Source of the DNA: Escherichia coli
Lineage (GTDB): Bacteria > Pseudomonadota > Gammaproteobacteria > Enterobacterales > Enterobacteriaceae
DNA: 64,000 bases
Assembly: GCF_003018255.1 (NCBI RefSeq)
Contig: NZ_CP027440.1
Direction: 5' to 3' (one strand)
The notes beneath the pieces were generated by a model, which saw nothing but the letters and a program-made list of their open reading frames with translations, had not been told where the DNA came from and did no database searches. This document shows positions 1,035 to 48,929 of this stretch, one piece after another. The first letter of the stretch is position 1; each line of letters begins with the position of its first letter. The translations under genes and the position numbers were made by a program.

Positions 1035-1609
1035 ACCGGGCCTCCGGTTGTATCGCCGCCTTTCAGGACGCCAGTATGCTGATGCGCATCAACCACGATC
1101 CCGTTAGAACTCATCGCTCCGCCGCCCTGGGTAACGCCACCATTGATCACCACTTCGCTGTTAATGCGCGTGCGGTCAGCCTCCAGTACAAACTCACTGG
1201 TTTTCATGGTGATGTTGTCAGCAGCCTCAATGACCATTGATTTGATGCCCCTGACATACCAGCGCCCGGTGGCGGGTTCGTATTCAAACCAGCCACCGTC
1301 AGGATGTTCTGTCACGCAGGCGTCCGCCGACGTCGACGGTGGTGCGAACTGATTCGAATAGACAGCGGGCAGCGCAAAGGCGGTTTCCAGATTGCCGCCC
1401 AGACTCAGCAGCACCACCTGCTCACCTTCCGATGGTCGCCACCATGTACGGGCATTCCCGGCACGCAGCGTCAGCCAGCTGATCCAGTTGGTTTCAAGCT
1501 CGCCCGTTTTCACCCGGCAAAGCCAGTTTTCCCTGTCCACTTCGGTGACTACCCCTGTGCGGATCAGGTTGGTGATAAGGCGCATGATTTCGGTTAATTG
1601 TGCGTTCAT
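1031..1609 (-). CDS. Baseplate spike/assembly protein gpV
   Basis: 192 aa; P2 gene order R-S-V-W-J; start overlaps gpW stop. Confidence 0.8.
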   Translation of the reverse strand: MNAQLTEIMRLITNLIRTGVVTEVDRENWLCRVKTGELETNWISWLTLRAGNARTWWRPSEGEQVVLLSLGGNLETAFALPAVYSNQFAPPSTSADACVTEHPDGGWFEYEPATGRWYVRGIKSMVIEAADNITMKTSEFVLEADRTRINSEVVINGGVTQGGGAMSSNGIVVDAHQHTGVLKGGDTTGGPV

Positions 1610-1677
1610 AGGGAAAGGTTGCCATCAGGGGAAGAAAGGCGGCAGTGCTGCAACTTGTATCAGTGCTGATACAAAGA

Positions 1678-2124
1678 TCACCCCGCCAGCCATTGCAGAA
1701 TCATGTCGCGGGTCATTGCCTCAACATCATCATTTACACCCAGCAGGCGGCGCTCTGCGTAACGGACCTCCGGTCCTTTGCGACTGACGCGATCACGCAG
1801 GCCGTAATGGTGAACACGGGCAATACGCTGCACCTTGCCTTCAAACTGTACGCTGGCAGAGTCGGCGCTGGCGGCAGTTTTCAGGTATTTTGTGGTGCGC
1901 AACTTTGCAAACATCTGACGTTTGATGCGGCCTTTTTTGCTGCGTGCTGTTACCCTGCGCGGTTCATAACTGCTGCCATCTGGATTGCGCTGCATCCTGA
2001 TATTCTGCTGCTGTGTCCGGCGCAGTTCCTGCGCCAGCTGGCGCATCATGCGGCTTCTCGTGGCTGGTTCCAGATTCGCCAGCAAGGCACTCAGCCAGTC
2101 GTCCACCTTCTGCAGTTCAGCCAC
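1678..2124 (-). CDS. Tail completion / virion morphogenesis protein gpS
   Basis: 148 aa; position and size match P2 S. Confidence 0.75.
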   Translation of the reverse strand: MAELQKVDDWLSALLANLEPATRSRMMRQLAQELRRTQQQNIRMQRNPDGSSYEPRRVTARSKKGRIKRQMFAKLRTTKYLKTAASADSASVQFEGKVQRIARVHHYGLRDRVSRKGPEVRYAERRLLGVNDDVEAMTRDMILQWLAG

Positions 2125-2569
2125 GTTTCACCGTCCACATTTCTTCAGGTTCATCGGGTTCTGCTACAGCTTCAACGCTCGACACACTGCCGTCAGTACT
2201 GACCAGCACACGTTCCGTCAATTGCAGGTTAAGGCTGATATCACAGACATCGTTGCGCAAAATATCCACCTCAAAGGTGAATAGCTTTTCCCGTAACGCC
2301 GGGTTATTGATGGCATCGGGCTGGTTATCCCGAAGCCACAGTAAAACCGGGGCCATCAGCAGATTCTGGTCGCCGCTGAAATCCTCAATCACCACGTTCA
2401 GGGTGTAGCGGTACTCCCATGACATGGAGCTGGCCCCCGTGGCAACCAGCGAACCGTTATCCACAAACAGATGCAGTTTGTCCGGGTTATTGCGGACATA
2501 AGGCACCGCTTTATTGAGGGCGTGGCGCAGGGATTGTGGTTTGTTCACTGTTTCGCTCCTGACACGCAA
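2117..2569 (-). CDS. Tail completion protein gpR
   Basis: 150 aa; the motif PDKLHLFVDNGSL resembles P2 R as I recall it; true start may lie a few codons in. Confidence 0.75.
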   Translation of the reverse strand: MRVRSETVNKPQSLRHALNKAVPYVRNNPDKLHLFVDNGSLVATGASSMSWEYRYTLNVVIEDFSGDQNLLMAPVLLWLRDNQPDAINNPALREKLFTFEVDILRNDVCDISLNLQLTERVLVSTDGSVSSVEAVAEPDEPEEMWTVKRG

Positions 2570-2801
2570 TAATCATGTCCACTTTGTCTGCACAGACCGC
2601 CCAGGCGGCCTCCGTTTCATCCAGCAACGCGTTCAGGCCACCGTTAGTGCGCGGCGCTGCCTGATCCAGCCGACACGGCGTCACTCGCGGACAACCACTG
2701 ACGGTAAGCTGCACCTCCGGTGAGTGTGGGGCGTTCCCGCAGCCGGATAATGTCAGCAGGCAAAGGAGTATCAGCCCAGCGGCGTAAATCCTCGTTCTCA
2801 C
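2511..2801 (-). CDS. Outer-membrane spanin lipoprotein (LysC/Rz1-like)
   Basis: 96 aa with N-terminal signal and lipobox LTLSGC; partly embedded in the LysB frame, as in P2 lysB/lysC. Confidence 0.6.
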   Translation of the reverse strand: MRTRIYAAGLILLCLLTLSGCGNAPHSPEVQLTVSGCPRVTPCRLDQAAPRTNGGLNALLDETEAAWAVCADKVDMIIACQERNSEQTTIPAPRPQ

Positions 2802-3072
2802 GTTTCAGTTCCTCAATCCGGTGTTGTCGTTGTCTCAGCAGTACACTGGTCTGTTCTGCTTCGGCATAGAGCCGCGCCTGCTCCCGATTATTGGTTTCAG
2901 TCAGAATGGACAGGCTGATAAGCTGGCTGTTGCTCTTTGCCAGTGCCTGGCTTTTGCTCCGAAGCTCGTCTGCCTGCGTGCTGATGGTCTGGCTGGCATC
3001 AGCCAGCCGCCACGTCTGCCAGCCCAGCGCCGCCAGTAATAACGCCAGCACAACCAGCAGCAACCGGTTCAT
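2644..3072 (-). CDS. Inner-membrane spanin (LysB/Rz-like)
   Basis: 142 aa; N-terminal TM helix then coiled-coil-like region; follows lysA. Confidence 0.7.
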   Translation of the reverse strand: MNRLLLVVLALLLAALGWQTWRLADASQTISTQADELRSKSQALAKSNSQLISLSILTETNNREQARLYAEAEQTSVLLRQRQHRIEELKRENEDLRRWADTPLPADIIRLRERPTLTGGAAYRQWLSASDAVSAGSGSAAH

Positions 3073-3446
3073 GCTGCTACCTGTTGCGCAATCTGATTAC
3101 GGATCATCCAGAAGGCAATAACGGTCAGCAGATAAAAGACCAGGGTAATAGCCCACCCCGTCCAGGCGAGGCTGACGACAATCAGCAATCGCATCACCCA
3201 GCTGATAAATACGTTTTCTTTTCGGGTAATGGTCTTTAGCAAAGATGCCCTCAACTCCTGCCAGAGCGGGCCGTTCTTAATTAACGCAGCCAGTGCTACC
3301 GGAATTACCGCCCATGTCAGCAAACAGGCTACCCAGACACCGGACGCTGCCAGTACCGGAAAAATCCCCTGCGGATACACCATTGCTGCGATCAACAGCG
3401 CCATCCATAACATCAGAAACAGCCCGCTGATTACTTTCTTTTTCAT
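3069..3446 (-). CDS. LysA-like polytopic membrane protein (lysis timing)
   Basis: About four predicted TM helices; start taken at MKKKVIS just after the endolysin stop. Confidence 0.65.
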   Translation of the reverse strand: MKKKVISGLFLMLWMALLIAAMVYPQGIFPVLAASGVWVACLLTWAVIPVALAALIKNGPLWQELRASLLKTITRKENVFISWVMRLLIVVSLAWTGWAITLVFYLLTVIAFWMIRNQIAQQVAA

Positions 3447-3447
3447 T

Positions 3448-3960
3448 TCAGTTTGCTCCCTGTAAGCACCAGGCCATCTCCCGCGCACGGCGGTTATCCA
3501 GCCCCTGATTAAAAACACCTTTCACATAAACCCAGCGCGGCAACTGTCGGCACGCATCCGCCCAGCGCCGCTGATTGAGTAATTTCACCAGTGTGGAACT
3601 GCAGGCATTGCCCGTTCCCACGTTGAAGGCAAACGACACCGCAGCGTCATACACCTTCTGCGGCGGCTGTTGCTTCACACACCTTTCCAGCGCCCGCTCC
3701 ACACGCAGCACGTTGGAGATCAGCCCTTCTGCTGCCTGTCGCTCCGTAATGGTTTTGCCGGGAATGACGCCCGACGTATTACCAATGCCGTCGGTCCAGA
3801 CACCCGCGCTGCACTGATACGGCTGCAGACGACAACCTTCGTAATCGGCAATCAGTTTCAGCCCTTCCACTGAGGTGTGAAGCTGCTGAAAACCCGGCAG
3901 CGTGGCAGCAATAGCCAGCACGGCCCCGACAAGGCAGCGTTTAACGATTGATGGATTCAT
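3448..3960 (-). CDS. Phage endolysin (lysozyme, P2 gpK-like), possibly signal-anchor-release type
   Basis: 170 aa; hydrophobic N-terminus CLVGAVLAIAATLPGF followed by a lysozyme-like domain (EGCRLQPYQC...GIGNT). Confidence 0.85.
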   Translation of the reverse strand: MNPSIVKRCLVGAVLAIAATLPGFQQLHTSVEGLKLIADYEGCRLQPYQCSAGVWTDGIGNTSGVIPGKTITERQAAEGLISNVLRVERALERCVKQQPPQKVYDAAVSFAFNVGTGNACSSTLVKLLNQRRWADACRQLPRWVYVKGVFNQGLDNRRAREMAWCLQGAN

Positions 3961-4156
3961 AGTCCTCCCGCGAGATCTGCCCGTCGCGCAGAAGCTGGTA
4001 GGCTTTGTGTTTGTAGTACCAGTTGATAGCCAGCATCAGCACACCAATCATCAGGCCGCCCAGCGTTGAGGCATCCTTGATGGACAAATCGCCCAGCCAG
4101 GCCAGCACGACGGCGATGCAATACGTGATAAAGGCGCTGATTCGCTCAAGCGTCAT
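3941..4156 (-). CDS. Holin (two TM helices)
   Basis: 71 aa with two hydrophobic helices and a charged C-terminus; immediately upstream of the endolysin. Confidence 0.75.
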   Translation of the reverse strand: MTLERISAFITYCIAVVLAWLGDLSIKDASTLGGLMIGVLMLAINWYYKHKAYQLLRDGQISREDYESINR

Positions 4157-4159
4157 AAT

Positions 4160-4363
4160 TCAGTCCCATAGCTGGACGGTCTGCACGGTGGTGGTGGTCG
4201 GAATGTCCGGCAGCTCCACCTGCAGCCCGTGAGGTAAAAAGGGGCCGTATTCGGCAAGCCCCGGATTTGCCTTCAGTACCTGCTCCGTGACACCCTGCGT
4301 GCGCCCGTAATGACGCCAGCAAAGCGCGTCCACCGTGTCATACTGATGCGCACGCACTTTCAT
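4160..4363 (-). CDS. Tail protein gpX
   Basis: 67 aa, same length as P2 X; position L-X-Y-K. Confidence 0.8.
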   Translation of the reverse strand: MKVRAHQYDTVDALCWRHYGRTQGVTEQVLKANPGLAEYGPFLPHGLQVELPDIPTTTTVQTVQLWD

Positions 4364-4890
4364 CAGATAAGCTCCACTGTGCAGTGCGGCGCATCCTGCA
4401 CCCGGCTGATGGCCCAGCGGGCGTCACGCCACAAATCACCGCTTGCTTCCGCCAGTTCCTCGCCCCGCTTCGCACCGGATGCCGTGGCGTCATAGTCCTG
4501 GTAACGTTCGTTGAGCATGGCGCGTGCCCAGCAGTAAACCGCGTTGAAATAGTGCTGAATGCGCTCGCTTTTGCCGTCCAGCTGTTCCGCCGGAACCTCA
4601 GCCAGCGACACATATCCCAGCATCTGCTGGCGTCTGCGAAACTCATACAGCTCTGCGTTGACCTCCGAAATTGCCGACAGGGCAACCTGCTTTAAACGCG
4701 GCTGCGTCACCGTGCCGTCAGTGCGCATCACGCTGCGAAACTCCGACAGGTCCACATCAGGCCAGAACGGCGTATTTCTGATGATTTCCGCCTGTTCCGG
4801 TGCCTGTTCTGGTGCAACAAACTTCATGCTGCTTTCTCCTGAAATAGAGGGCGGTGGACGGGATTTTGATGTGGCTATGCCTTTCGCCAC
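4363..4890 (-). CDS. Head completion/stabilisation protein gpL
   Basis: Position after the small terminase subunit; true start may be the internal MKFVAPEQ. Confidence 0.75.
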   Translation of the reverse strand: MAKGIATSKSRPPPSISGESSMKFVAPEQAPEQAEIIRNTPFWPDVDLSEFRSVMRTDGTVTQPRLKQVALSAISEVNAELYEFRRRQQMLGYVSLAEVPAEQLDGKSERIQHYFNAVYCWARAMLNERYQDYDATASGAKRGEELAEASGDLWRDARWAISRVQDAPHCTVELI

Positions 4891-4922
4891 CCCGTGCCGC
4901 CCGTGCGCGGGGGCACGTTCTG

Positions 4923-5573
4923 TCAGCGGCTGTCATTGCGCAGTCTGCGCTCCAGCTGCTGTTTGTCTTTTTTCACGCCACAGCGGGGAGCGAGCTGTAA
5001 CGCATGGTTGAGATGGTTAAGGGCAGAAGCCGGATTGCTTTCACTCAGGACAGCGCCAATCGCTTTATGCAGACGCGCCCGTGACTGGTCCGGCATATCC
5101 AGACCGTCTGTTAGTTCCAGTGTCTGCAGCAACAGATCGGCATCAAAGCCGGTGGCGGCAAGCATTGCGCTCTGCGCCGCGTCTGCCATTTCCTCTGCCA
5201 GCACGGTCTGCACGTTGCGGTTACCCAGCGGCATCACCCAGCCATGACGCAGGGCATGACGCCCGATCTCCAGCGCCCCGGCATAATCTCCGGCATCAAT
5301 GCGCCACAGCATCACGTACATCAGCACGTCATCCTGTTGAGCGCCTCCGGCAGCCAGAACGCCCTCCGCCCAGGCGGTATATTTCGGCAGCAGCTCCACC
5401 TTGATTTCCGCTTTTTTGACCGTGGACTGAACGCCCTTGAGACGGCGGCGGTCTTCCGCCAGTTGCAGCAGCATCAGGTCATAGCCCGACGCGTGGCAAA
5501 CACTGCCACCCTCGCGAGCGGCCTGTTCAGCCTGAACGCGCAGGCGATGCTGCCGTGCGGGACTCAGGCTCAT
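4923..5573 (-). CDS. Terminase small (endonuclease) subunit gpM
   Basis: 216 aa; position N-M-L as in P2. Confidence 0.8.
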   Translation of the reverse strand: MSLSPARQHRLRVQAEQAAREGGSVCHASGYDLMLLQLAEDRRRLKGVQSTVKKAEIKVELLPKYTAWAEGVLAAGGAQQDDVLMYVMLWRIDAGDYAGALEIGRHALRHGWVMPLGNRNVQTVLAEEMADAAQSAMLAATGFDADLLLQTLELTDGLDMPDQSRARLHKAIGAVLSESNPASALNHLNHALQLAPRCGVKKDKQQLERRLRNDSR

Positions 5574-5576
5574 GAA

Positions 5577-6635
5577 TTACGCTCCGGTTTCTGCTGCGGC
5601 GGCGCTGAAGTCACCAATCTGGATGTTTTCCACCAGTGCAGCGCAGCGATAGTCCTCAACCACATAGGCTTCGTTAACGGATTCAAAATTTTCAATCCGG
5701 TCACGTTTCGGGTTGTCGATAACTGAACGGCGGCGGGTATCTTCCTGCCAGTAGATGGACAGGTTATCCAGACGGGTGATCAGCAGCGCATTCGGCGGGA
5801 AGAACGGCGCACGCACCGCCTGCAGGCCACCCATGCGTTTCTGACTGATGATCATATCGGCAGCCAGTTTTTCACTGTTTTCCTGCTCTTTGTTGACCAG
5901 CGGGAAATACTTGTCAGACAGCAGTTCACGCCCGCAAATCACCACCAGATCGTCATCGTCCTGGTAGACCACGTCGATAAGCTCATTGACCGCATCCATC
6001 ACCACAGCGTCCAGGTTGGCATATTCGCCACCTTTCCCGACTTTCACCGCATCCGGTGTGGTTTCGCCGCCCGTGGTGGTGCTGCCCATGACGTGATCCG
6101 GTGCATCCTCACGGATTTTCTGCAGCCAGCCTTTGTTCACATCCTGCAGCAGCGGGTTTTCACTACGGTTGGAGGTTTTCGCACGCTTCACGCCGTTAAA
6201 GCCGATCATGATGCGGTCCAGTGCCTGACGTTTCACGATGGCGTCACGGATACGCACCTGGAAATCCTGAAACTTCGCCCACAGGTCCAGCTTCGCGTAG
6301 GTCAGCACCGTGTCAAAGTTGGTCTGCTCGCATTTATATTCCACATCGACCATCAGCGTCGGATCGACAGGTTCACGCTCTTTCGCGGTGGTGTCAGTGG
6401 TTCCGGCAATGGTGCTGCCAACACCCAGCCCCAGCAGCTGACCGGACTGCTCAGTCACTGGCGTGACGTTAATCAGCGTCAGGAAAGCGGCGGACTGCTG
6501 GATCTGGTCTTCCAGCGTCTGCTGCACAGACGGCTCCACAGTGAATTTGCTGGACAGTTCTTCAACTGCCACACCGTTCAGACGCGCCAGCTGCTGCAGG
6601 TAAGCGTTAAAAGCAAAGCGGGTATTCTTCTTCAT
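5577..6635 (-). CDS. Major capsid protein gpN
   Basis: 352 aa (P2 N about 357 aa); position O-N-M. Confidence 0.9.
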   Translation of the reverse strand: MKKNTRFAFNAYLQQLARLNGVAVEELSSKFTVEPSVQQTLEDQIQQSAAFLTLINVTPVTEQSGQLLGLGVGSTIAGTTDTTAKEREPVDPTLMVDVEYKCEQTNFDTVLTYAKLDLWAKFQDFQVRIRDAIVKRQALDRIMIGFNGVKRAKTSNRSENPLLQDVNKGWLQKIREDAPDHVMGSTTTGGETTPDAVKVGKGGEYANLDAVVMDAVNELIDVVYQDDDDLVVICGRELLSDKYFPLVNKEQENSEKLAADMIISQKRMGGLQAVRAPFFPPNALLITRLDNLSIYWQEDTRRRSVIDNPKRDRIENFESVNEAYVVEDYRCAALVENIQIGDFSAAAAETGA

Positions 6636-6651
6636 CGGGTTTTGTGCTCCA

Positions 6652-7485
6652 TCAGCAATTGGTCAGAGTGTCAGCGGGGGCGTTACCGCCTGTTGCACGC
6701 TGGCGGTAGTCCTGGCGGCTGTCTTCATGACTCAGCTTGTCCACCAGTTCGTTAAAGGCGGTTTGCTGTGCCTGCAGGGCAGTCTCCAGCTCAGACAGGC
6801 GTTCTTCCTGCTCAGACAGGGATTTTTCGGTGCGTGCGTTCAGGTTCTGCTGCTCAGTGGCGACCAGCTCCACGGCCTTATGCACATCAGAGAACCGGGC
6901 GTCATCGGACTGCTCTTTTTTGGTAAACAGCGCCGTGACGCGGGCAAACAGGGACGGTTTGTCGTCCTGGATTTCTTCCAGTTCGATCACCGTTTCCTCT
7001 GCAGCGGTAAAGAGATTGGCAGGATTCTGCTTGCGGTTTGCCAGCGGGTTATGGGCTGCACTGGCGCTGAATGTCAGCATTTCCGTACCCAGACTGGCAG
7101 GGTCATCAGTGGCAGCCAGGCCGACCAGGTAGGCTTTGCCCGTATCAGCGAACTTCGGGCTGACTTCCATAGAGGTGAATAATTTCTGGCCTTTTTTCAC
7201 CAGTTCCACCAGGGACTCCGTTGGCTCAACGTCGGCATACAGCGCCATCTTGCCTGCCAGCGGACCTTCCGTGATTTCTTCAGCAAACAGCGCCGTCACC
7301 TTGCCGTAGCGGTTAAAGATGCTGTCCGGCAGATAAGACTTGATGTGCTCAAGGTTAATCAGCGCGGTATACACCGCCGGGTTGTAGCTGGCTGCCATCT
7401 GTTCCAGCCATTCACGCTGGATTTCGCGTCCGTCGGTGGTGGCACCTTCCACCCCGATGCGAAAACGCTTTGCTTTCACTGTCAT
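6652..7485 (-). CDS. Capsid scaffolding protein gpO
   Basis: 277 aa; coiled-coil-rich C-terminus; divergent from the P/Q genes as in P2. Confidence 0.85.
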   Translation of the reverse strand: MTVKAKRFRIGVEGATTDGREIQREWLEQMAASYNPAVYTALINLEHIKSYLPDSIFNRYGKVTALFAEEITEGPLAGKMALYADVEPTESLVELVKKGQKLFTSMEVSPKFADTGKAYLVGLAATDDPASLGTEMLTFSASAAHNPLANRKQNPANLFTAAEETVIELEEIQDDKPSLFARVTALFTKKEQSDDARFSDVHKAVELVATEQQNLNARTEKSLSEQEERLSELETALQAQQTAFNELVDKLSHEDSRQDYRQRATGGNAPADTLTNC

Positions 7486-7627
7486 GAGCCGTGCTCCGTT
7501 AGAAAAAACTTACTGGAGCCTTATGGTTGCGGTGATGGGGGCAGTGAAACAATGCGCGGCATTTGTACCGACAACCACACAAACCGCAGGCGGGGAAAGC
7601 CTTCATTCAAGGCTGTAGGTTTGTACC

Positions 7628-9394
7628 ATGAACACCACACTGACACCCGCAGATCTCGATCCCCGTCGGCAGGCCATGCTGCTGTACTTTCAGGGATACC
7701 GCGTAGCCCGCATTGCTGAAATGCTGGGCGAGAAAGTTGCAACCGTTCACAGCTGGAAAAAACGCGACAAGTGGGGTGACTATGGGCCGCTGGATCAGAT
7801 GCAGCTCACCACCGCCGCACGCTACTGCCAGCTCATCATGAAGGAGCACAAAGAAGGGAAAGATTTCAAAGAGATTGACCTGCTGGCGCGCCAGTCTGAG
7901 CGCCACGCGCGGATCGGCAAGTTTAACAATGGCGGCAACGAATCCGACTTAAACCCTAACGTCGCCAACCGCAACAAAGGCCCACGCCGTCAGCCGGAAA
8001 AGAATGTTTTCACCGATGAGCAGATTGAGAAGCTGGAAGAAATCTTCCATTCCTCCATGTTCAACTACCAGCGCCACTGGTGGGAAGCCGGAAAAACCAA
8101 CCGCATCCGCAACCTGCTGAAGTCACGCCAGATCGGCGCGACCTTTTACTTTGCCCGTGAAGCCCTGATTGACGCCCTACTGACCGGACGTAACCAGATT
8201 TTCCTTTCCGCCAGCAAGGCACAGGCCCACGTCTTTAAGCAGTACATCATCGACTTCGCCAAAGAAGTGGAGGTGGAGTTGAAAGGCGATCCGATGGTGC
8301 TTCCTAACGGGGCCACGCTTTACTTCCTCGGCACCAATGCCCGCACGGCCCAGAGTTATCACGGCAACCTGTATCTGGATGAATATTTCTGGATACCGAA
8401 ATTCCAGGAGCTGCGCAAAGTGGCTTCCGGTATGGCTATTCACAAGAAATGGCGACAAACCTATTTTTCCACGCCATCCAGCCTGACACACAGTGCTTAT
8501 CCGTTCTGGTCCGGTGCGCTATTCAACCGTGGGCGCAACAAAGCAGATAAGGTGGACATCGACCTGTCCCACAGCAATCTGGCCCCCGGCCTGCTGTGCG
8601 CAGACGGGCAATACCGCCAGATTGTCACCGTGGAAGATGCAGTGCGCGGCGGATGTAACCTGTTCGACCTCGATCAGTTACGCATGGAGTACAGCCCGGA
8701 CGAATACCAGAACCTGCTGATGTGCGAGTTTGTGGACGATCTCGCGTCTGTGTTCCCACTCAGCGAGCTGCAGGCGTGCATGGTGGACAGCTGGGAAGTC
8801 TGGACCGACTTTCATGCACTGGCACTGCGCCCATTTGGCTGGCGCGAAGTGTGGATCGGTTATGACCCTGCGAAAGGTACGCAGAACGGCGACAGTGCCG
8901 GATGCGTGGTGGTGGCACCGCCAGCCGTGCCGGGCGGCAAGTTCCGCATTCTTGAGCGTCACCAGTGGCGCGGGATGGACTTTCGCGCCCAGGCTGACGC
9001 CATCAAAAAACTGACCGAACAGTACAACGTGACCTATATCGGCATCGACTCAACCGGCGTTGGTCACGGGGTTTATGAGAACGTGAAAGCGTTCTTTCCT
9101 GCCGTCCGGGAGTTTGTCTACAACCCCAACGTTAAAAACGCCCTGGTACTCAAGGCCTACGACATTATCAGCCACCGCCGTCTGGAGTTTGACGCCGGGC
9201 ACACCGACATTGCGCAGTCATTCATGGCAATCCGTCGCGCCACCACCGCCAGTGGCAACCGCCCGACCTATGAAGCCAGCCGCAGCGAAGAAGCCAGCCA
9301 CGCCGATCTGGCCTGGGCAACGATGCACGCACTGTTTAACGAACCGCTGCAGGGCGAATCCGCCAATACCAGCAATATTGTGGAGATTTTTTGA
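7628..9394 (+). CDS. Terminase large (ATPase) subunit gpP
   Basis: 588 aa; P2 P-like length and sequence. Confidence 0.9.
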   Translation: MNTTLTPADLDPRRQAMLLYFQGYRVARIAEMLGEKVATVHSWKKRDKWGDYGPLDQMQLTTAARYCQLIMKEHKEGKDFKEIDLLARQSERHARIGKFNNGGNESDLNPNVANRNKGPRRQPEKNVFTDEQIEKLEEIFHSSMFNYQRHWWEAGKTNRIRNLLKSRQIGATFYFAREALIDALLTGRNQIFLSASKAQAHVFKQYIIDFAKEVEVELKGDPMVLPNGATLYFLGTNARTAQSYHGNLYLDEYFWIPKFQELRKVASGMAIHKKWRQTYFSTPSSLTHSAYPFWSGALFNRGRNKADKVDIDLSHSNLAPGLLCADGQYRQIVTVEDAVRGGCNLFDLDQLRMEYSPDEYQNLLMCEFVDDLASVFPLSELQACMVDSWEVWTDFHALALRPFGWREVWIGYDPAKGTQNGDSAGCVVVAPPAVPGGKFRILERHQWRGMDFRAQADAIKKLTEQYNVTYIGIDSTGVGHGVYENVKAFFPAVREFVYNPNVKNALVLKAYDIISHRRLEFDAGHTDIAQSFMAIRRATTASGNRPTYEASRSEEASHADLAWATMHALFNEPLQGESANTSNIVEIF

Positions 9395-10419: not shown

Positions 10420-10460
10420 CGAAAAATCAGCCTTGGCGTTCATAACGTTAGGGCTGTTCA

Positions 10461-12430
<1,970 letters not shown>

Positions 12431-12459
12431 ATTTTGCCTATTTTAGGTGATAGCGCGCG

Positions 12460-12478
12460 CTCGTATCCCCGCCACGCC
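12460..12478. other. Candidate phage cos site
   Basis: Minus-strand read GGCGTGGCGGGGATACGAG; the first 13 nt match the 19-nt cohesive end of phage 186 as I recall it (GGCGTGGCGGGGAAAGCAT). Lies between the tum-like module and the portal side, as expected in the P2/186 map. Confidence 0.45.
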
Positions 12479-12526
12479 TGCCCGCTTTATGTAGTGGTTT
12501 TCATGCACCTGCATGATCTACGCAAA

Positions 12527-12546
12527 AGCCCGCCAGTTCTGGCGGG
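12527..12546 (-). terminator. Rho-independent terminator-like hairpin downstream of the DinI-like gene
   Basis: Perfect 9-bp stem GCCCGCCAG/CTGGCGGGC followed by TTTTG on the minus strand. Confidence 0.5.
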
Positions 12547-12682
12547 CCTTAGCAAAAACGATCCTCAAACGATCATGCGATCTCATGCGGCATAGACATG
12601 CACTACAGAGCTAACGCCTCGCAAGGGCTCGTTGTTCAACCTTGCTGACGCCAGAAACAAGTTCAGACGCCAGCAACGTTTC

Positions 12683-12916
12683 TTAATGCAGCCAGCTGTC
12701 GTCTTCCCACACCTTTTGCATAATTTTCATCACTTGCTTCCTTTCTTCGTCCAGTTGCAGTCCTGTCAGTTCCACACCGTTAGAGCTACCTTTACGGATA
12801 CGAATTACCGTTTTGGGATACAGGGGGCGCAGATTGCGGTAAAGCTCGGATTCAAGGGCGTCCAGGGTAGACTGGCTAATCTTCTGCTCTTTATCGATCA
12901 TTATTTCAATGCGCAT
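12683..12916 (-). CDS. DinI-family protein (Tum C-terminal-like)
   Basis: Start at MRIEIMIDK gives about 77 aa, resembling E. coli DinI (MRIEV...); downstream of a LexA box. Confidence 0.7.
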   Translation of the reverse strand: MRIEIMIDKEQKISQSTLDALESELYRNLRPLYPKTVIRIRKGSSNGVELTGLQLDEERKQVMKIMQKVWEDDSWLH

Positions 12917-12926
12917 AAAAGTCACC

Positions 12927-13115
12927 TCAGCTGATGACATCCATTGAGCGGTTGTATTCGTGGGTTCTGATTTTTGCCATGAGTTCATCTGTCAGTTCAG
13001 AAACCCACTGCAGAGCCAGCCCCTTCTCTTCATCACTACACTCACTAGCCGCTACAAGCTTAAGAAAAAAATCAATGCGCTGGAGCTTCAAAGACTCCAA
13101 AAAATAGTCCTGCAT
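12927..13115 (-). CDS. Small SOS-controlled protein (possible Tum N-terminal part)
   Basis: About 62 aa from MQDYF; overlaps the DinI-like ORF in another frame; first ORF after the LexA box. Confidence 0.45.
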   Translation of the reverse strand: MQDYFLESLKLQRIDFFLKLVAASECSDEEKGLALQWVSELTDELMAKIRTHEYNRSMDVIS

Positions 13116-13158
13116 CTTTCCTCCTATGACACCACACGCAATACTGTATGTATAACCA

Positions 13159-13174
13159 CTGTTTATATTTACAG
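13159..13174. promoter_or_regulatory. LexA (SOS) box
   Basis: Exact CTGT-N8-ACAG palindrome CTGTTTATATTTACAG about 45 bp upstream of the small ORF, in an AT-rich promoter-like stretch. Confidence 0.7.
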
Positions 13175-13268
13175 TATATAATAATCTTACTGATGTAAAA
13201 CGTTTTTTTACATTCATCAGCCTGATATGCCTGGTATTATTAAGAGCACGAATTGTTAACCCGCGTAA

Positions 13269-15710
13269 TTAATACAGGTTCCGCCACTGATCATCTTCCT
13301 GCAAACGCTGGTTCCGATAGAAGATACGCAGGCCTGCTCCTGACGGAATACTGCCTCCGCGAAGGAGTAAATCGACCTCTTTCTCGCTGCCATCAAATCC
13401 TCTGGACTTCAGCTCATACACGAGCTGCAGTCGCTGATGGTCTGTAATTCGCTGTTTGTAGTCTTTACGCCGTTTCGGTTTCACCAGGCGTAACCTTGCA
13501 GCCAGTTCCCGGCGCTCTTTTTTGCTCATACTGTGCAGGTAATCGTGCAACTCCTTGTCATCCATGCGGGTAATGTCCGTTCTGGTATCCCCATCAGCTG
13601 ATTTGTCTTTCCCTTGTTGGTTCAAATTTTCAGCAAGGGGACAGTTATTGCCACGAGTCCAAGGGGCGCAAGCGCCCTGGTCGGCTGCCGCCTCCTGAAC
13701 GTCAACGGCCTTACGAACCATTTTCCACTTCACTGCATGAGTGCAGATCTTGCCCTCTGCAATGGGTGACCAGATGCCATAAATACGAATACCGTGATCA
13801 CCATAGGCGGTCGGCTCTTCGTTGATTTCATAAGCGGTTCTGATCAAGTGATATTTGCGGGGAACCAGTACGCCGCCCTGCTTCATAATGTAGGTGGCAA
13901 AACAGCCAGCATCAGCAGCAGCCAGAATGGCATCAAGGCGCGGGTTATCCAGTACCGACGCACCTGCTTTTTTGTCACCCTGTTGCCTTGCCGCCTGACC
14001 AGCCAGCAATCGCAGTTCACGGTAAGCCTGACGCCCCGGAATGCCAAAGAAGCGGAATTGCTGAACACGATGCAGAGACGCCCAGGCATTAACGTATTCA
14101 GCATTATCACGCAGGGATTTACCCGTTTCCTTGCTGATCTCGCCAGCCAGACCACGCCCGTCAATGTTCTTACTGATGTATTTCGCGATGTAGCTTGTTG
14201 GCGTACCTTTGCGCGGGTTTATCAGCTCAGACTTAAAGCGTGGCCCCGTGTTATTACCCAGCTCCTCGCGGTCTTCACGAATGGCAAACTTACGCAGCAA
14301 AGCAGTAATGGCGCGGCGATCTTTTTTGCGCATGAAACACAACAGGTGCCAGTGAACTGTGCCGTCATGATGCGGCTCAGCCACCCGCACGCCATACCAG
14401 CGCAACCCGGTTTTGTGCATAGCCTTACGAAATGCAGCAAACATGCCGACCAGATAATCGCTGCTTTGTCTTACCGTCGCGTTTGTCCAGGTCGGGTTTG
14501 GTCTGCCGTTATTGAGCGTGGAATGGAAACGCGACGGACAGGTGATGGTGTAGAAAACGGCACAGTCACTGCGCATTTCCGCGATAAGCTCCAGACCTTT
14601 AACACAGGCCATCATCTCATTGCGGCGATGCGCCGGGTTGCTGCTGCTGGCCTTTACCACATCTTCCATATCCAGCGTGTCGCCGTTTTCGTTCACCAGT
14701 TCATGAGAACGGAAAAACTCCAGCGACTTACGGCGCTGCTCACGTTTATGCATCACGGCTTCATAGCTGACATAGGGAGATGCTTTTTTGCTGACCAGGC
14801 AGACAGCACGCAACTGCTCTTCCCGCCATTCGCAGCGCATCTTCCATAATTTCCGATACCACCAGTCGGCACACAACATACGCGCCAGCGAACCCGGAAT
14901 GAGTTCATAGGGCACGGGTTTGCGACGCTTTCTTTTCCGACGAAGTTGCTCAAACGCAGGCGGGATAACATCCAGTCGCAGGGTTTCCGCTGCCACCTTT
15001 TCCCATGTCTTGCGGATTTCTTCTGGCTTAACATCATCGGTGGCGTACAAATCACCACAAGCGGCATCAAGGCACATGCTCATATGCGCAGCTACCAGGG
15101 TGGACAGGCGTTTCACCTGATCCTGACTCATTTCAGGCAGGATCAGCAGGCCGTCCAGCCCTTCATGGCTCGCCATAAAGCGAAAAGAAGTGGATAGCTG
15201 ACTGTCGCGTACATGCTCCAGCCGTTCCAGACATGGCTTAATCGTCTCACGCAAATAGCGAGAATAAGCCTTTGGCCTGCCCAGGCTGCTGAAGTATTCA
15301 ATACGTTGCATCAGCGGCTTGCTGATATGGGAAGGCTGGGCGTTAACGTCCGCCAGAATGACCATGTCCGGATTAAAACGCTGCTGCTCATGCGCCAGCT
15401 TTGCCCGGCTAATGAGCTTATCCTGCTCCATTTCGCGTTGGACAGGATCACGGGATTCATTAAAGAAATAACGCTCCCAGACCTGATCACTCAGTGCCTC
15501 GCGGCGCAGTTGTTCCTGCTCGTTATCGGCAGCGTACAGAGTGATCAGGTTTGAAAGCGCAGAAACCGGCGCAACTTCCGCCGGGTCCAGATAAGGGTTA
15601 ATGGCTTTCTTAGGTAAATTCCACGAATAACCCCCGGCAGAATTCTCAATGCTACCGGAAGTTACACTGACAAATGGATCGGCAAGACGGCCTGTGCTGA
15701 TCTCTGTCAC
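13269..15710 (-). CDS. Replication initiation endonuclease (P2/186 gpA-like)
   Basis: 813 aa; Y-x-K catalytic-tyrosine-like region (YIAKYISKN); position as in P2/186; start overlaps the upstream stop as ATGA. Confidence 0.85.
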
Positions 15711-16717
15711 TCACAGACTCCTGCATATACACTGCTGCACACCGCTTTATCATTCATGCCTGCCAGCAGGTCAAACTGCATACCGCCCCGAGTTGTTAAG
15801 GCCCAGTCCCGATAAGTTTCAATGCCATAAGCATCAACAGTTATGACTTCGATCCGTTTTTCATCACGGCGCGGATCATGCGTGGATGGAAAGAACGTTG
15901 AATTGCCACGTCTTGAACATTCCGCAACCAGTCTTTCCCACTCAGCCACTCGGCGGATTTCTTCTGGCCAGCGTTGGAAAATCTCAGCAAGTTCTGACTT
16001 GCGAGCATGAATACATGGCATACAACCGACACGACTGCATCCCTGCATATAAAGGGGGTTAGGCTTAATGCCATGACGTTTGGCAATAGCAAACACATCC
16101 TCATGCAGCCAATTAAGGATCGGACGATAAACATGCAGGCCCAGAGTATTGTCTGCATCGTCCTCCCACTCAGGCAACAATGCACGTTCCGGTGATTCCT
16201 GCCCCCGGACTCCTTGCCAGCTGATTACCTCATCGTATTCATCCAGAGCCGGATCGATTACCTGTGTACGTATTGGTTCATGTTTTAGTTCAAAAGTGCA
16301 GAAACGAGCTTTTGTTGAAGGGAAGCGACCTTTCCACATGCACAAATCAAGAAACGGAACGCCGGTTGGTTTAAGGATTTCCAGTGCCCGGTAAATACGT
16401 TCCTCAGCCTCATCTGTCGACATACCACATTCCTCAACGAGAGAAATGGGCCACTTTTCCGCAATGAATTTACGTTTCCCTTCTATCTGGCGTGTGAAAT
16501 CCGCTTTGACGCGAATAATCTTGCCCAGCTTTGATTCCAGATAATCCAGATATTCTATTGTCTGTGGATGTTCATGACCCGTATCGGCAAATACAGAAAT
16601 ATGCGGAACATCGTTTTCAATGGCTCTTAACCATTGAGCGAGACTATCTTTGCCACCAGAAGTAGTGATGATGTTAATGGTGCTTGAAGCAAAGCAACGC
16701 GGATCGATAGCATTCAT
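15707..16717 (-). CDS. PP-loop ATP pyrophosphatase, PAPS-reductase-like
   Basis: SGGKDS PP-loop motif near the N-terminus; C-terminal Cys clusters ([18 protein letters not shown]); ATGA-coupled to both neighbours. Confidence 0.75.
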
Positions 16718-17562
16718 GCGCGTACCTCAACGGTACGGTCAGAGCCGCTGGCAAAATCGACACCAAACCACCCAGCTGATTTGGTGGCAATGATTTCTGT
16801 TGCAGATTTACTCTCGCCAGCTGACACGCCAATGCTGCGTTTTGACTTGATGTAGTGGTGAGTGAAATTGCGATACAGCGAACGGATCAGGGATGTGTCA
16901 CTGTTAGAAACAATGACCGGATGACCTTCAGATGATCGATGTTCAAGAACGGATGCCAGGTGATACTGGTCATCTTCAGTGAAGCCATCAGTGTGATAGC
17001 CGGAAAACGTACCGTCATAAGGCGGATCGCAATATACCACATCCCCCACCTTCAACATCGCCAGCGTTTCATCAAAGCTGGCGCAGATAAACGTTGCCCG
17101 CTGGGCTTTCTCTGCAAATGCGCGAATTTCTTTTTCAGGGAAATACGGATTTTTATAATTACCGTAGGGAATGTTGAAATACCCGCTCTTGTTATAGCGA
17201 CATAGCCCACGGTAACCATGACGATTGAGATACAGAAAATATACCGCTTTCATGAAATCAGTAATTTCAGTGGAGTAATTAAACTCCTGCCTTATGTTGT
17301 AATAAGCCACCTCTCTGTTTGCTTCCTCAAATAAAGCTCTGGCACGAGATATAAACGCCTCACAATCAGCAGCAACCTTTTTATAGAGGTTGATTAAATC
17401 AGGATTAATATCCGCAACCAGATAGCTGGGGTAATCCGTCTCCATCATCACAGCACAAGAACCCGCGAAAGGTTCAACCAGTCGCGGGCCAGCAGGAAGG
17501 TATTTTTTCAGTTCGGACATAATGGCGGTTTTATTACCCGCCCATTTCAGGATGGTGCTCAT
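16714..17562 (-). CDS. dam: DNA adenine methyltransferase (Dam-like, N6-adenine)
   Basis: DPPY catalytic motif and an N-terminal SAM-binding region (FAGSCAV); start at [11 protein letters not shown] overlaps the upstream stop. Confidence 0.85.
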
Positions 17563-17861
17563 ACAGCACCTCCTGCAATAACATATCCTAAAGCTTCTAA
17601 TGGGGTTAATGAGCGAATTGATAGCATCACCCATTGTTCTGAAACTGCCATGACGTCATTAACCGGAAGCACATGAGAGATAACCGCGGCCCATTCCCTA
17701 CCCGTAAATACGCCATGCTTCCATTCGCAAAGAGAAAGAACATCACCAACTTTATAGCCACGATCGTCTTTACGAAGTTCAGCCGTCTTTTGACCTGCAA
17801 CCACAGCGTTGAAATACTTAGGTGCAATTTTTAATTGATGGATACGCACAGCCCCTGTCAT
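17559..17861 (-). CDS. ASCH/DUF3850-like small protein
   Basis: About 100 aa from [44 protein letters not shown] overlap with the TraR-like gene. Confidence 0.55.
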
Positions 17862-22121: not shown

Positions 22122-22607
22122 ATGTCCGGCATTGCGGATTTTTTTTCAGTTGTGGCTGCAGTTGGGGCAGTTGTAATCATCCCTGCTGCATATCAACCTA
22201 TTTATCAATCATCTAAAACAAAAAACTATGAGTCTTTGGTAAAAGTTGATTGGGGCAATGAAGGTGACATCTCTACTTCTTATCCACATTTCATACATAT
22301 ACAGTTAGAGAAAGCAGAAGGTGATTGGACTTTTTCAGGAGAACTCATCTGCACAATTAATCCCGAAGAAAAGTTCGTCATTCAGGGTAAACTGAGATGT
22401 CTTAGGACTATAGATGCTGTAATACATCGTACTATTGGCTGGCGGGCTATTGAGATTGGAAAGGCTAAAATCAAGTATGACCGCCGCACAAATCAGTGTC
22501 GATTTATCCCACAAAAGGTTGCTCAGAAGAAACTTGAGACTGATTGCGAACGTGCAATCTTCAGCACCAGCCTCCCTTTATGGGGAAATGACAAATCTCC
22601 GGTATAA
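22122..22607 (+). CDS. Membrane-anchored hypothetical protein (moron between int and the prophage end)
   Basis: 161 aa with one N-terminal TM helix (FFSVVAAVGAVVIIPAAY); AT-rich codon usage unlike phage core genes. Confidence 0.5.
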   Translation: MSGIADFFSVVAAVGAVVIIPAAYQPIYQSSKTKNYESLVKVDWGNEGDISTSYPHFIHIQLEKAEGDWTFSGELICTINPEEKFVIQGKLRCLRTIDAVIHRTIGWRAIEIGKAKIKYDRRTNQCRFIPQKVAQKKLETDCERAIFSTSLPLWGNDKSPV

Positions 22608-31154: not shown

Positions 31155-31244
31155 TGGCGGAGAGAGGGGGATTTGAACCCCCGGTAGAGTTGCCCCTACT
31201 CCGGTTTTCGAGACCGGTCCGTTCAGCCGCTCCGGCATCTCTCC
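31155..31244 (-). tRNA. serU: tRNA-Ser (anticodon CGA)
   Basis: Minus strand reads GGAGAGATGCCGGAGCGGCTGAACGGACCGGTCTCGAAAACCGG...CTCTCCGCCA with a long variable arm. Confidence 0.9.
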
Positions 31245-31337
31245 GTTCAGATGGTTGCCATGATGCCAGGAAATTTGGCATTTTAACAGTCCCTGTCCGT
31301 GCAATTTTGTTCAAGTGACGAGTTTGCGAGCAAAACG

Positions 31338-32135
31338 ATGATTAAGTGGCCCTGGAAAGTACAAGAATCAGCACATCAAACTGCCCTTCCCTGGCAGGAA
31401 GCACTATCGATCCCCCTTTTAACGTGTCTGACGGAACAGGAACAAAGCAAATTAGTCACTCTTGCCGAACGTTTTTTACAGCAAAAGCGGCTTGTTCCTT
31501 TACAGGGCTTTGAACTGGATTCATTAAGAAGCTGCCGGATAGCACTTCTATTTTGCCTGCCCGTTCTGGAGTTAGGACTGGAATGGCTGGATGGTTTTCA
31601 TGAAGTCTTAATTTATCCTGCGCCATTTGTGGTCGATGATGAATGGGAAGACGATATCGGTCTGGTGCATAACCAACGTATTGTTCAGTCAGGTCAGAGC
31701 TGGCAGCAAGGGCCTATCGTTTTGAACTGGTTGGATATACAAGATTCTTTTGATGCTTCTGGTTTTAACCTGATTATTCATGAAGTCGCTCATAAGCTGG
31801 ACACCCGTAACGGCGATCGCGCCAGCGGAGTTCCCTTTATTCCGTTGCGTGAGGTTGCTGGCTGGGAACACGATCTTCATGCTGCAATGAACAACATTCA
31901 GGAAGAAATCGAATTGGTTGGCGAGAATGCGGCGAGCATTGATGCTTATGCTGCCAGTGATCCTGCTGAATGTTTTGCCGTACTTTCTGAATATTTCTTT
32001 AGCGCCCCAGAACTTTTTGCTCCACGTTTCCCTTCATTGTGGCAACGTTTCTGCCAATTTTATCAACAAGATCCTTTGCAGAGACTGCATCACGCTAATG
32101 ATACAGACTCGTTTTCGGCGACGAATGTTCATTAA
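31338..32135 (+). CDS. mtfA: Mlc titration factor A
   Basis: Start MIKWPWK; HEXXH-type motif (HEVAHKLD). Confidence 0.9.
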
Positions 32136-32235
32136 TTAACAACTTTGCAGATTAATTAACCAATTGAAATGACTTATGAAATTTAGTGTTGACAGACAAA
32201 GTACCGCTAAGTAATATGCGCCCCGTTCACACGAT

Positions 32236-32311
32236 TCCTCTGTAGTTCAGTCGGTAGAACGGCGGACTGTTAATCCGTATGTCACTGGTTCGAGTCCAGT
32301 CAGAGGAGCCA
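32236..32311 (+). tRNA. asnT: tRNA-Asn (GUU)
   Basis: TCCTCTGTAGTTCAGTCGGTAGAACGGCGGACTGTTAATCCG...AGGAGCCA. Confidence 0.95.
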
Positions 32312-48771: not shown

Positions 48772-48929
48772 ACCTTAAGTGCAGCCCTGGTGCCTGTCGG
48801 CACTGCGATGAAAGAACTAAATGATGCCGCCATACCCTGATCCTTTCAGGGTGGTAGGGGTATAAAGACGCGCCTGTACTCTACTGGACGCTTCCGGGCA
48901 ACCCACTTCCCACCGAAGTTGTTGGTAAT

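Follow-up and report, generated by a model that had tools for sequence, protein, structure and literature searches.

Lysis modules related to the cassette

The lysis genes of phage P2, Y-K-lysA-lysB-lysC, lie between the tail genes X and R and encode, in that order, a holin, an endolysin, LysA, LysB, and LysC. The class I holin Y has three TMDs; the endolysin K is soluble, does not belong to GH24, and lacks any hydrophobic stretch. The lysC gene of P2 starts in the +1 frame within lysB and ends within R, an overlapped arrangement that has been described for this phage (PMC3091744). More generally, spanins are termed “overlapped” when the o-spanin gene starts within the i-spanin gene and passes its stop (PMC6139136). 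Phage 186 is without lysA.

At the N-terminus of SAR (signal-anchor-release) endolysins, two or three basic residues precede a weakly hydrophobic TMD that lacks charges and is rich in small residues (PMC9239132). Signal peptidase leaves this signal in place, and the enzyme builds up on the membrane in an inactive, tethered form. The export of these enzymes needs no holin; as a rule, it is depolarization of the membrane by the holin that sets off their release and activation at the programmed time (PMC6116005, PMC9239132). Release and activation upon depolarization or through a pinholin have been called the “definitive test” of a SAR endolysin (PMC9239132). Lyz of phage P1 (PDB 1XJT, 1XJU) has the GH24 fold, a cysteine-bearing SAR segment, and the motif E-G-C-x6-C-x5-T, in which a Cys takes the place of the catalytic Asp; its partner holin is LydA/LydB. 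In phage 21, a small two-TMD class II holin (S21) is encoded directly upstream of the GH24 SAR endolysin R21 (PDB 3HDE), whose triad is E-D-T and whose regulation is conformational rather than disulfide based. In pinholins of the S21 type, TMD1 is a SAR domain in its own right, and the nanometer-scale holes are too small for a soluble endolysin. Another GH24 SAR-type endolysin, Lyz103 of Erwinia phage Era103, carries a Cys in its N-terminal segment, has Asp at the catalytic position, and differs in the arrangement of its other cysteines (C42, C45). That arrangement reportedly fits the published “disulfide caging” variant.

The closest described modules are those of Klebsiella phages KP12 (OM835953) and 4LV2017 (NC_047818) and Escherichia phage vB_EcoM-813R9 (ON470620), all of which have the same five genes in the same order as the cassette analyzed here. 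The KP12 genes were reported to include “overlapped” spanins and a Lyz-like endolysin whose SAR domain is conserved, and the purified enzyme gave lytic spots, although by the authors' own account its lysis of Gram-negative cells lacked proper verification (PMC9902359).

Organization and integrity of the cassette

The window, a stretch of 64,000 nucleotides from an Escherichia coli contig (NZ_CP027440.1), carries five intact, closely spaced lysis genes on its minus strand between positions 2511 and 4156, as seen in the ORF map. It is highly probable that these genes make up the lysis module within the late “O” operon of a P2-family (Peduoviridae, 186/Fels-2-like) prophage and that they likely encode a pathway built from a holin, a SAR endolysin, and spanins. 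The ORFs are real genes rather than chance reading frames, as indicated by matches to PF00959 for the endolysin (E=4.6e-40), PF16080 for the holin (E=4e-9), and PF23793 for LysC (E=8e-15) and by NCBIfam scores for LysB and LysC that are above the cut-offs. Plus-strand ORFs over the interval (e.g., 2013-2408 and 3229-3465) had no family support and appear to be antisense shadows.

The original prediction held that the cassette looked intact, and this was borne out. None of the five lysis genes contains a frameshift or a premature stop, all of the ORFs are uninterrupted and full length, and the encoded proteins are 94-100% identical, end to end, to proteins of an E. coli prophage and of phage vB_EcoM-813R9. 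At the DNA level, the cassette is 96.8-97.9% identical over 2 kb to those of KP12, 4LV2017, and 813R9, from which it differs only by point substitutions, and the same cassette is found in E. coli chromosomes at up to 99.1% identity. The interval also contains a fifth gene that had previously been overlooked, encoding a four-TMD LysA-like protein (3069-3446).

The cassette occupies the same position between X and R as the lysis genes of P2, and its genes follow the same order. LysA, LysB, and LysC are homologous to their P2 counterparts (26%, 31%, and 43% identity, respectively), and the alignment of LysC begins at residue 1. In contrast, an HP1-family holin with two TMDs stands in place of Y and a SAR-type GH24 lysozyme in place of K, and no homology of this pair to the P2 Y/K or 186 orf24/P proteins was found. 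The locus is thus a clean example of modular exchange, in which the holin-endolysin pair has been swapped and LysA, LysB, and LysC have been kept.

Holin

The first gene of the cassette (3941-4156, minus strand) encodes a protein of 71 aa with two TMDs predicted from hydropathy at about residues 6-24 and 29-47 and a charged C-terminal tail. It scores 36.7 bits against Pfam PF16080 (cut-off, 28.8), which identifies it as a class II holin of the HP1 family, and it also matches PHROG 20, “holin” (E=2e-26). Homologues were found in Peduoviridae phages only. The gene lies directly upstream of the endolysin gene, and its final 20 nt overlap the endolysin start. The pairing of a small two-TMD class II holin with a GH24 SAR-type endolysin directly downstream resembles that of S21 and R21; however, the match to the P21 S holin (S21 pinholin) family, PF04971, is under the cut-off (23.2 versus 26 bits), and TMD1, in which 32% of the residues are small, is not obviously SAR-like.

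Endolysin

The endolysin gene (3448-3960, minus strand) starts at an ATG with a GGGAGGA Shine-Dalgarno sequence upstream and encodes a GH24 muramidase of 170 aa that is a candidate SAR endolysin of the Lyz(P1) type. In addition to PF00959, it matches a PHROG endolysin family. The catalytic and putative caging motif, E41-G-C43-x6-C50-x5-T56 (codons 41-56; 3793-3840, minus strand), was located by alignment with P1 Lyz, and the E41-X8-C50-X5-T56 triad, together with the Pfam match and the fold, identifies a muralytic GH24 domain. Among solved structures, P1 Lyz is the nearest relative (1XJT; E=2e-26), with R21 and other GH24 enzymes further away. R21 ranks fifth by sequence, behind both forms of Lyz and two lysozymes unrelated to these, and third by structure.

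Residues E41, C43, C50, and T56 align one for one with E42, C44, C51, and T57 of Lyz, and Cys9 shares an alignment column with Cys13 of Lyz. The N-terminal Cys of Lyz103 also aligns with Cys9. An alignment of 19 sequences that extends down to 35% identity shows C9 and C43 in every sequence and C50 in nearly all, and two further conserved cysteines (C137, C165) are shared with Lyz. In a search of 1.8 billion cluster representatives, a Cys was present in the N-terminal hydrophobic segment of 28 of the 30 relatives that have both the E-x-C...C motif and such a segment but in only one of the seven that have another residue at the catalytic position. The protein thus has the sequence hallmarks of the Lyz(P1)-type subclass, namely, a Cys in place of the catalytic Asp, a putative caging Cys that follows the Glu by two residues, and a Cys in the putative SAR segment.

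The AlphaFold model of the endolysin (pLDDT of 93.1 overall and 94-96 for residues 11-30) is most similar to the full-length active form of Lyz (1XJT; TM, 0.85) and less similar to the inactive form without the SAR segment (TM, 0.58), although such a model may merely reproduce the Lyz crystal structure. The two enzymes also differ in several respects. They are only 37-40% identical, an 11-residue insertion in Lyz is absent from the cassette endolysin, Cys9 directly follows the basic residues rather than lying in the middle of the helix in the raw sequence, and the genomic context and the partner holin are not those of P1.

The N-terminal segment and its alternatives

The N-terminus of the endolysin reads MNPSIVKR-CLVGAVLAIAATLPGF-QQ, i.e., two basic residues (K7 R8) followed by 16 uncharged residues with a Kyte-Doolittle maximum of 2.08, in agreement with the earlier report of a hydrophobic segment in this ORF. 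The putative SAR domain, CLVGAVLAIAATLPGF (codons 9-24; 3889-3936, minus strand), carries Cys9, and 7 of its 16 residues are Gly, Ala, or Thr. It is far weaker than the other TMDs of the cassette, with a best 19-residue Hessa-scale sum of +5.5 (the TMDs of the holin, LysA, and LysB give -3.0 to +2.9), and it is also shorter and weaker than the segment of Lyz (+0.5). These features agree with those described for SAR N-termini, at the short and weak end of the range. Taken together, the Lyz-type motif, the conservation of Cys9, the weak N-terminal hydrophobicity, and the match of the model lend good computational support to the SAR endolysin that had been put forward as a possibility, and the enzyme is very probably of the P1 Lyz type, as judged from its sequence, its predicted structure, and analogy. 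Membrane tethering, the absence of cleavage, release, and disulfide isomerization would all follow by analogy with Lyz, at 37-40% identity. The enzyme had also been described as secretion-dependent rather than holin-dependent. This is half correct: SAR endolysins need no holin for export, but their release and activation are normally holin triggered, and an intact holin gene adjoins.

Two other explanations of the N-terminal segment have to be weighed against the SAR reading. If it were an ordinary Sec signal peptide cut by signal peptidase I, the product would be a soluble periplasmic lysozyme restrained by the disulfide cage alone or by some PMF-dependent inhibition, and the short core of only 16 residues, preceded by K7 R8 and containing an A-x-A-like A16-I-A18 ahead of Pro22-Gly23, does fit the n, h, and c regions of such a peptide. 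The equivalent A-I-A is, however, present in the SAR domain of P1 Lyz, which is uncleaved (PMC6116005). Precedents for cleavage can be cited, in that Lys44 is a secreted endolysin with a true signal peptide (PMC6116005) and T4 RI, long termed a SAR protein, was reportedly later found to be cleaved (PMC8385771). Nevertheless, the invariance of Cys9 down to 35% identity and its co-occurrence with C43 and C50 would be hard to explain for a segment that is discarded, and in the AlphaFold model residues 11-30 are packed on the catalytic body as in full-length active Lyz, so that we consider a cleaved signal peptide improbable. Far less probable still is a conventional cytoplasmic enzyme that would need large holin holes and in which the hydrophobicity of the N-terminus would be incidental. 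The same E-x-C...C motif is found in 27 GH24 cluster representatives that have no N-terminal extension, but among the relatives that bear one, the 40-residue extension before the catalytic Glu, with its basic residues and uncharged stretch, keeps its length and character. It also matches the structure of SAR-bearing Lyz, and a cytoplasmic location would leave the conserved trio of cysteines unexplained.

Proposed lysis pathway

With the endolysin taken as a SAR enzyme, homology suggests that the host Sec system would export the 170-aa GH24 lysozyme via its N-terminal segment, a weak helix of 16 residues with K7 R8 on the cytoplasmic side, and that this uncleaved segment would tether the inactive enzyme to the periplasmic face of the energized inner membrane. 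In the tethered enzyme, Cys50 at the catalytic position would be locked to Cys43 by a disulfide, as the motif common with P1 Lyz implies. The 71-aa, two-TMD HP1-family holin would meanwhile build up, trigger at a programmed time, and collapse the proton motive force, and the four-TMD LysA-like protein would probably tune the timing of the holin, like lysA in P2. Depolarization would then free the SAR helix from the bilayer, and Cys9 could attack the Cys43-Cys50 bond and release Cys50, with a Cys9-Cys43 disulfide taking its place; the SAR helix would pack on the catalytic body in the way seen in active Lyz, and murein would be degraded. In the last step, which is modeled on P2 and lambda, LysB in the inner membrane and the lipoprotein LysC in the outer membrane would disrupt the outer membrane.

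LysA-like protein

The LysA-like membrane protein (3069-3446, minus strand; 125 aa, four predicted TMDs) is a putative antiholin or lysis-timing factor. Its ATG is 1 nt past the endolysin stop, and its own stop overlaps the ATG of lysB (ATGA). It scores 127.3 bits against NCBIfam NF038378 (cut-off, 40), matched from profile position 1, and it is 26% identical to P2 LysA over 132 aligned positions (query residues 3-123; E=1.6e-6). Its four hydrophobic segments, its slot between the endolysin gene and lysB, and its family membership place it with P2 LysA. There was no match for the protein in a local copy of Pfam, although precomputed annotations list Pfam PF28015, “LysA,” on natural fusion proteins that contain this sequence. 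A longer ORF of 149 aa with a GTG start (3069-3518) was also considered, but the ATG at 3446 is preferred because of its GGGAG Shine-Dalgarno sequence and because the NF038378 match begins at position 1. The antiholin role is a putative one for P2 LysA and the LysA-like protein alike.

The endolysin and LysA-like genes are separate in the window, but many endolysin-LysA proteins of 296 aa were found in the homologue search, one set of which comes from assemblies with further frameshifts. A programmed frameshift joining the two genes was rejected, as the DNA alignment revealed independent 1-nt deletions at two different sites and no slippery site. The predicted topologies of the two parts of the fusion are also in conflict, in that the C-terminus of the endolysin would be periplasmic whereas the N-terminus of LysA (MKKK) is expected to be cytoplasmic. 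It could be argued that LysA controls the timing of lysis in general, through the membrane or through SAR-endolysin release in a releasin/anti-releasin manner, and is not a holin-specific antiholin, because a LysA homologue is kept in the same slot with LysB and LysC although the class II holin and the SAR lysozyme that replace Y/K are unrelated to them and because a widespread allele fuses LysA to the endolysin. We give this idea little credence; the simpler reading is that LysA travels with the LysB/LysC block and that the endolysin-LysA fusions represent decay.

Spanins

LysB (2644-3072, minus strand; 142 aa) matches TIGR03495 phage_LysB at 172.9 bits (cut-off, 92.75) and PHROG 89, “Rz-like spanin” (E=3e-45), and it has the makeup of an i-spanin, with an N-terminal TMD at about residues 3-21 followed by a periplasmic helical domain without cysteines. 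LysC (2511-2801, minus strand) is a 96-aa o-spanin precursor that scores 123.2 bits against NF038368 P2_Rz1 (cut-off, 27). The gene starts with a GTG codon 8 nt downstream of a GAGGA Shine-Dalgarno sequence, and both elements are kept in relatives. The precursor begins with the signal peptide MRTRIYAAGLILLCLLTLSG and has the lipobox L-S-G-C21 with Gly22 at the +2 position (outer-membrane sorting), as is characteristic of o-spanin lipoproteins, and the mature lipoprotein has 76 aa, including 8 Pro and 4 further Cys. Two shorter starts for LysC, giving 82 aa (PGAP) and 56 aa (the 813R9 record), were rejected because they begin within or past the signal peptide, whereas the 96-aa form aligns with P2 LysC from residue 1.

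The lysC gene starts 271 nt into lysB and shares 158 nt with it (2644-2801, minus strand), read in frame 0 for lysB and +1 for lysC; it then runs 133 nt beyond the lysB stop, and its final 38 nt overlap the tail gene R, so that the arrangement is as in P2. The original prediction of a lipoprotein o-spanin ORF lying partly within the i-spanin frame and extending past it was therefore accurate, but its description as “embedded,” the class of lambda Rz/Rz1, in which the i-spanin frame encloses the entire o-spanin gene, was wrong, since lysC ends downstream of lysB and hence belongs to the overlapped class. LysB and LysC are a genuine overlapped two-component spanin.

Prophage context

The window begins inside the baseplate genes, and the tail genes, gene D, and the gene for the Ogr/B-type late activator that would drive the operon fall outside it, so that the earlier suggestion of a lysis-competent prophage goes beyond what this stretch can support. 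The visible prophage genes, from W to int, are all full-length ORFs with strong family matches. A TGT-N12-ACA dyad in the O/P intergenic region (7564-7581) is a possible, if weak, site for an Ogr/B-type activator at the late promoter of O-N-M-L-X-lysis-R-S. This dyad and another at 1656-1673 occupy the two intergenic gaps that contain late promoters in P2, although over the whole window the count of such dyads is not above chance (11 found versus 16 expected). A consensus scan for promoters and terminators across positions 1500-7700 gave counts near chance and was uninformative.

The cassette could be intact in sequence and nevertheless belong to a defective or noninducible prophage, a well-preserved relic in which the lysis program is never expressed. 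The activator needed by late operons of the P2 family lies beyond the window, as do gene D and the tail genes, and the same cassette decays in other genomes, where endolysin-LysA, holin-endolysin, and endolysin-gpD fusions occur. Against this stand the full-length genes and strong family matches from W to int, the absence of frameshifts from the five lysis genes, whose products are 94-100% identical to the proteins of related phages and prophages, and the TGT-N12-ACA dyads in the gaps expected for late promoters, so that a relic seems rather unlikely. The cassette identifies the element as a prophage of the P2 family whose lysis module is uncorrupted.

Distribution and annotation

At ≥95% identity, the cassette is present in 1037 of 5426 complete E. 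coli genomes, or roughly a fifth. It is real and intact, but it is also ordinary and already described: the combination of a holin, a SAR endolysin, LysA, and overlapped spanins is a textbook one that is routinely named by the NCBI annotation pipeline and has appeared in print for phage KP12. Its discovery value is therefore small and its practical value modest. The endolysin of 813R9 is annotated 13 codons too short, and LysC is annotated as either 56 or 82 aa in public records. The corrected starts, which give a 96-aa LysC and a 170-aa endolysin, matter because the export signals of both proteins are at their N-termini.

Organization of the lysis cassette

Five tightly spaced genes occupy 2511 to 4156 on the minus strand of the window, flanked by tail gene X (4160 to 4363, PF05489) and tail-completion gene R (2117 to 2548, PF06891). 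They encode a holin (3941 to 4156, 71 aa), an endolysin (3448 to 3960, 170 aa), a LysA-like protein (3069 to 3446, 125 aa), the i-spanin LysB (2644 to 3072, 142 aa), and the o-spanin LysC (2511 to 2801, 96 aa), all on that strand. The end of the holin gene overlaps the start of the endolysin gene by 20 nt, and the endolysin ATG follows a GGGAGGA Shine-Dalgarno sequence; 1 nt separates the endolysin stop from the LysA ATG, an ATGA is common to the lysA stop and the lysB start, and the GTG start of lysC lies 8 nt downstream of a GAGGA Shine-Dalgarno sequence. Such junctions are typical of phage operons with translational coupling. The reading of the cassette as intact holds, with none of the five genes interrupted and all five proteins aligning from end to end, at 94 to 100% identity, with counterparts from an E. 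coli prophage and Escherichia phage vB_EcoM-813R9. The original prediction is confirmed as an observation and is largely right as an interpretation; it missed the LysA-like gene, and its term for the spanin architecture, the continuing role of the holin, and its inference of prophage competence need correction.

Endolysin

The endolysin is a GH24 lysozyme (PF00959, E = 4.6e-40) whose top sequence match among all solved structures is Lyz, the signal-anchor-release (SAR) endolysin of phage P1 (1XJT, E = 2e-26), with R21 of phage 21 behind it. The hydrophobic N-terminal segment that had been predicted is present: the protein begins MNPSIVKR-CLVGAVLAIAATLPGF-QQ, with two basic residues followed by 16 uncharged ones. 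In the active-site region, DYEGCRLQPYQCSAGVWTDGIGNT lines up position by position with NAEGCRRDPYMCPAGVWTDGIGNT of Lyz, which pairs E41, C43, C50, and T56 with E42, C44, C51, and T57. Across 19 aligned sequences with identities as low as 35%, the cysteine of the N-terminal segment, Cys9, shares a column with Lyz Cys13, and Cys9, E41, and C43 are invariant. Searching 1.8 billion cluster representatives yielded 125 usable relatives; a cysteine lies in the N-terminal hydrophobic segment of 28 of the 30 that have this segment together with an E-x-C...C motif and of 1 of the 7 that have it with another residue at the catalytic position, counts that are phylogenetically nonindependent. The AlphaFold model (pLDDT 93.1; 94 to 96 for residues 11 to 30) has its best PDB match in full-length, active Lyz (1XJT; TM 0.85), compared with 0.58 for the inactive SAR-less form (1XJU).

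By every sequence-level criterion, the protein is predicted to be a Lyz-type SAR endolysin. On the Hessa scale, the sum for the segment over its best 19 residues is +5.5 kcal/mol; the helices of the holin, LysA, and LysB give −3.0 to +2.9, and the SAR domain of Lyz gives +0.5. By this comparison the segment is a weak membrane anchor. That the segment is instead a cleavable signal peptide is a minority alternative that we consider improbable; in its favor, the uncharged stretch is short and has A-I-A inside it, and a SAR assignment has been reversed once already, that of T4 RI (PMC8385771). For a SAR endolysin, noncleavage, tethering, release, and disulfide isomerization would be expected by analogy with P1 (the mechanism is reviewed in PMC6116005 and PMC9239132).

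Holin, LysA-like protein, and spanins

The holin, with two hydrophobic helices and a charged tail, scores above the Pfam cutoff for the HP1 holin family and just under that for the P21 S family; it may form either pinholes or large holes. Its occurrence is confined to Peduoviridae phages, the Fels-2 relatives RE2010 and SEN8 among them. The LysA-like protein has four hydrophobic segments, belongs to NCBIfam NF038378 and Pfam LysA, and is 26% identical to P2 LysA, which is described as nonessential with an effect on lysis timing (P2 record features) and has been called an antiholin (PMC3091744). PHROG 162 and RefSeq phage records mislabel this membrane protein as “endolysin.”

The endolysin and LysA genes are unfused in the window, but in other genomes (relatives of 3440 to 3500; loci L008 to L011) they are joined as a 296-aa open reading frame, represented by P0012, P0018, and about 40 further clusters. 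The fusions arose through single-base deletions, independent of one another, close to the 3′ end of the endolysin gene. One allele, CCTGGTG to CCTGTG, recurs in 48 or more blocks of the collection, Illumina metagenome contigs among them; the other, GCGGGAG to GCGGAG, comes from assemblies in which further frameshifts occur and probably reflects a sequencing error. Because the topology predicted for the fused protein contradicts itself, decay is the more likely explanation.

LysB and LysC score far above curated equivalog cutoffs and are 31% and 43% identical to their P2 counterparts. The LysC signal peptide is classical, with LSG|C21 as its terminal lipobox and a Gly at position +2, and alignment with P2 LysC from the first residue confirms the 96-aa GTG start. 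As proposed, the o-spanin frame lies partly within that of the i-spanin and runs beyond it: lysC begins 271 nt inside lysB in the +1 frame; 158 nt are common to the two genes, and lysC continues 133 nt past the lysB stop, its last 38 nt overlapping gene R. As Kongari et al. define the terms (PMC6139136), this arrangement is “overlapped,” as in P2, rather than “embedded,” as in lambda and as the cassette had been labeled. Public annotations of relatives contain start errors: PGAP places the LysC start within the signal peptide (82 aa; 1612 to 1860 of related locus L001), and the 813R9 record (L002, 1115 to 1285 and 2049 to 2522) gives LysC 56 aa and the endolysin 157 aa, with loss of the SAR N terminus.

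Prophage context and prior description

The cassette belongs to a P2-family (Peduoviridae) prophage of the 186/Fels-2 type, as shown by the genes around it, among them V, S, R, X, L, M, N (P2-family capsid), O, P (terminase), Q (portal), and A (replication), together with those for a CII-like regulator, a CI-like repressor, and an integrase. Its integrase-side end lies near 22.7 kb; the window starts within the baseplate genes, leaving the tail end out of view. Since the late activator (Ogr/B type) and tail genes fall outside the window, the lysis competence suggested for the prophage cannot be judged. The cassette has the gene order and position of the P2 lysis module, but only LysA, LysB, and LysC are homologous to its members, whereas neither the holin nor the endolysin is related to P2 Y and K or to the orf24 and P proteins of 186. 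Thus, in this lineage the holin-endolysin pair ahead of the conserved LysA/B/C block has been swapped. TGT-N12-ACA dyads lie exactly within the O/P (7564 to 7581) and S/V (1656 to 1673) intergenic gaps, the positions of late promoters activated by Ogr in P2; over the whole window the motif is not enriched (11 found versus about 16 expected).

The 2-kb interval is 96.8 to 97.9% identical to Klebsiella phages KP12 and 4LV2017, vB_EcoM-813R9, and dozens of induced Klebsiella prophages, and it occurs in 1037 of 5426 complete E. coli genomes (top matches, 99.1% identity), where PGAP names the products HP1 family holin, lysozyme, DNZ54_00345 family protein, LysB, and LysC. The KP12 endolysin was reported to resemble Lyz with a conserved SAR domain, and the KP12 spanins to overlap as in P2; the purified enzyme gave lytic spots, an activity that the authors discuss as not properly verified (PMC9902359). 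Given that description and this frequency, the cassette is already known.

Other features of the window

A gene for a 646-aa retron reverse transcriptase-Toprim protein (10461 to 12401, minus strand; low GC, 0.35), type I-C of the Ec67 family (PADLOC E = 9e-217), is named “retron Ec67 family RNA-directed DNA polymerase/endonuclease” by PGAP in relatives. It lies between Q and A, the cargo slot of old/tin in P2, so the prophage resembles a phiR67-type retronphage. An Rfam gathering scan of the surrounding gap (10420 to 13268) gave no match, and the msr/msd RNA was not located. In the early region, adjacent minus-strand genes (15707 to 17634) encode an orphan or type II DNA methyltransferase (306 aa) and a PAPS-reductase-like protein (336 aa) with SspD/DndC/BrxP-like matches, possibly a DNA modification or antirestriction module. 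A 161-aa plus-strand open reading frame (22122 to 22607) that follows the integrase closely, where prophage and chromosome meet, has no match in PHROG or PADLOC. At 99% identity, at most one genome of the complete-genome collection matches the first 25 kb, and at most one matches 22.6 to 40 kb. The chromosomal flank (31155 to 44703, 48921 to 49095, and 50162 to 50245) is the E. coli amn/hprS/shiA/msrP/yeeO region, at 97 to 98.6% identity, and carries tRNA-Ser(CGA), four identical tRNA-Asn genes, a cobalamin riboswitch (107.5 bits), and the sRNA STnc230.
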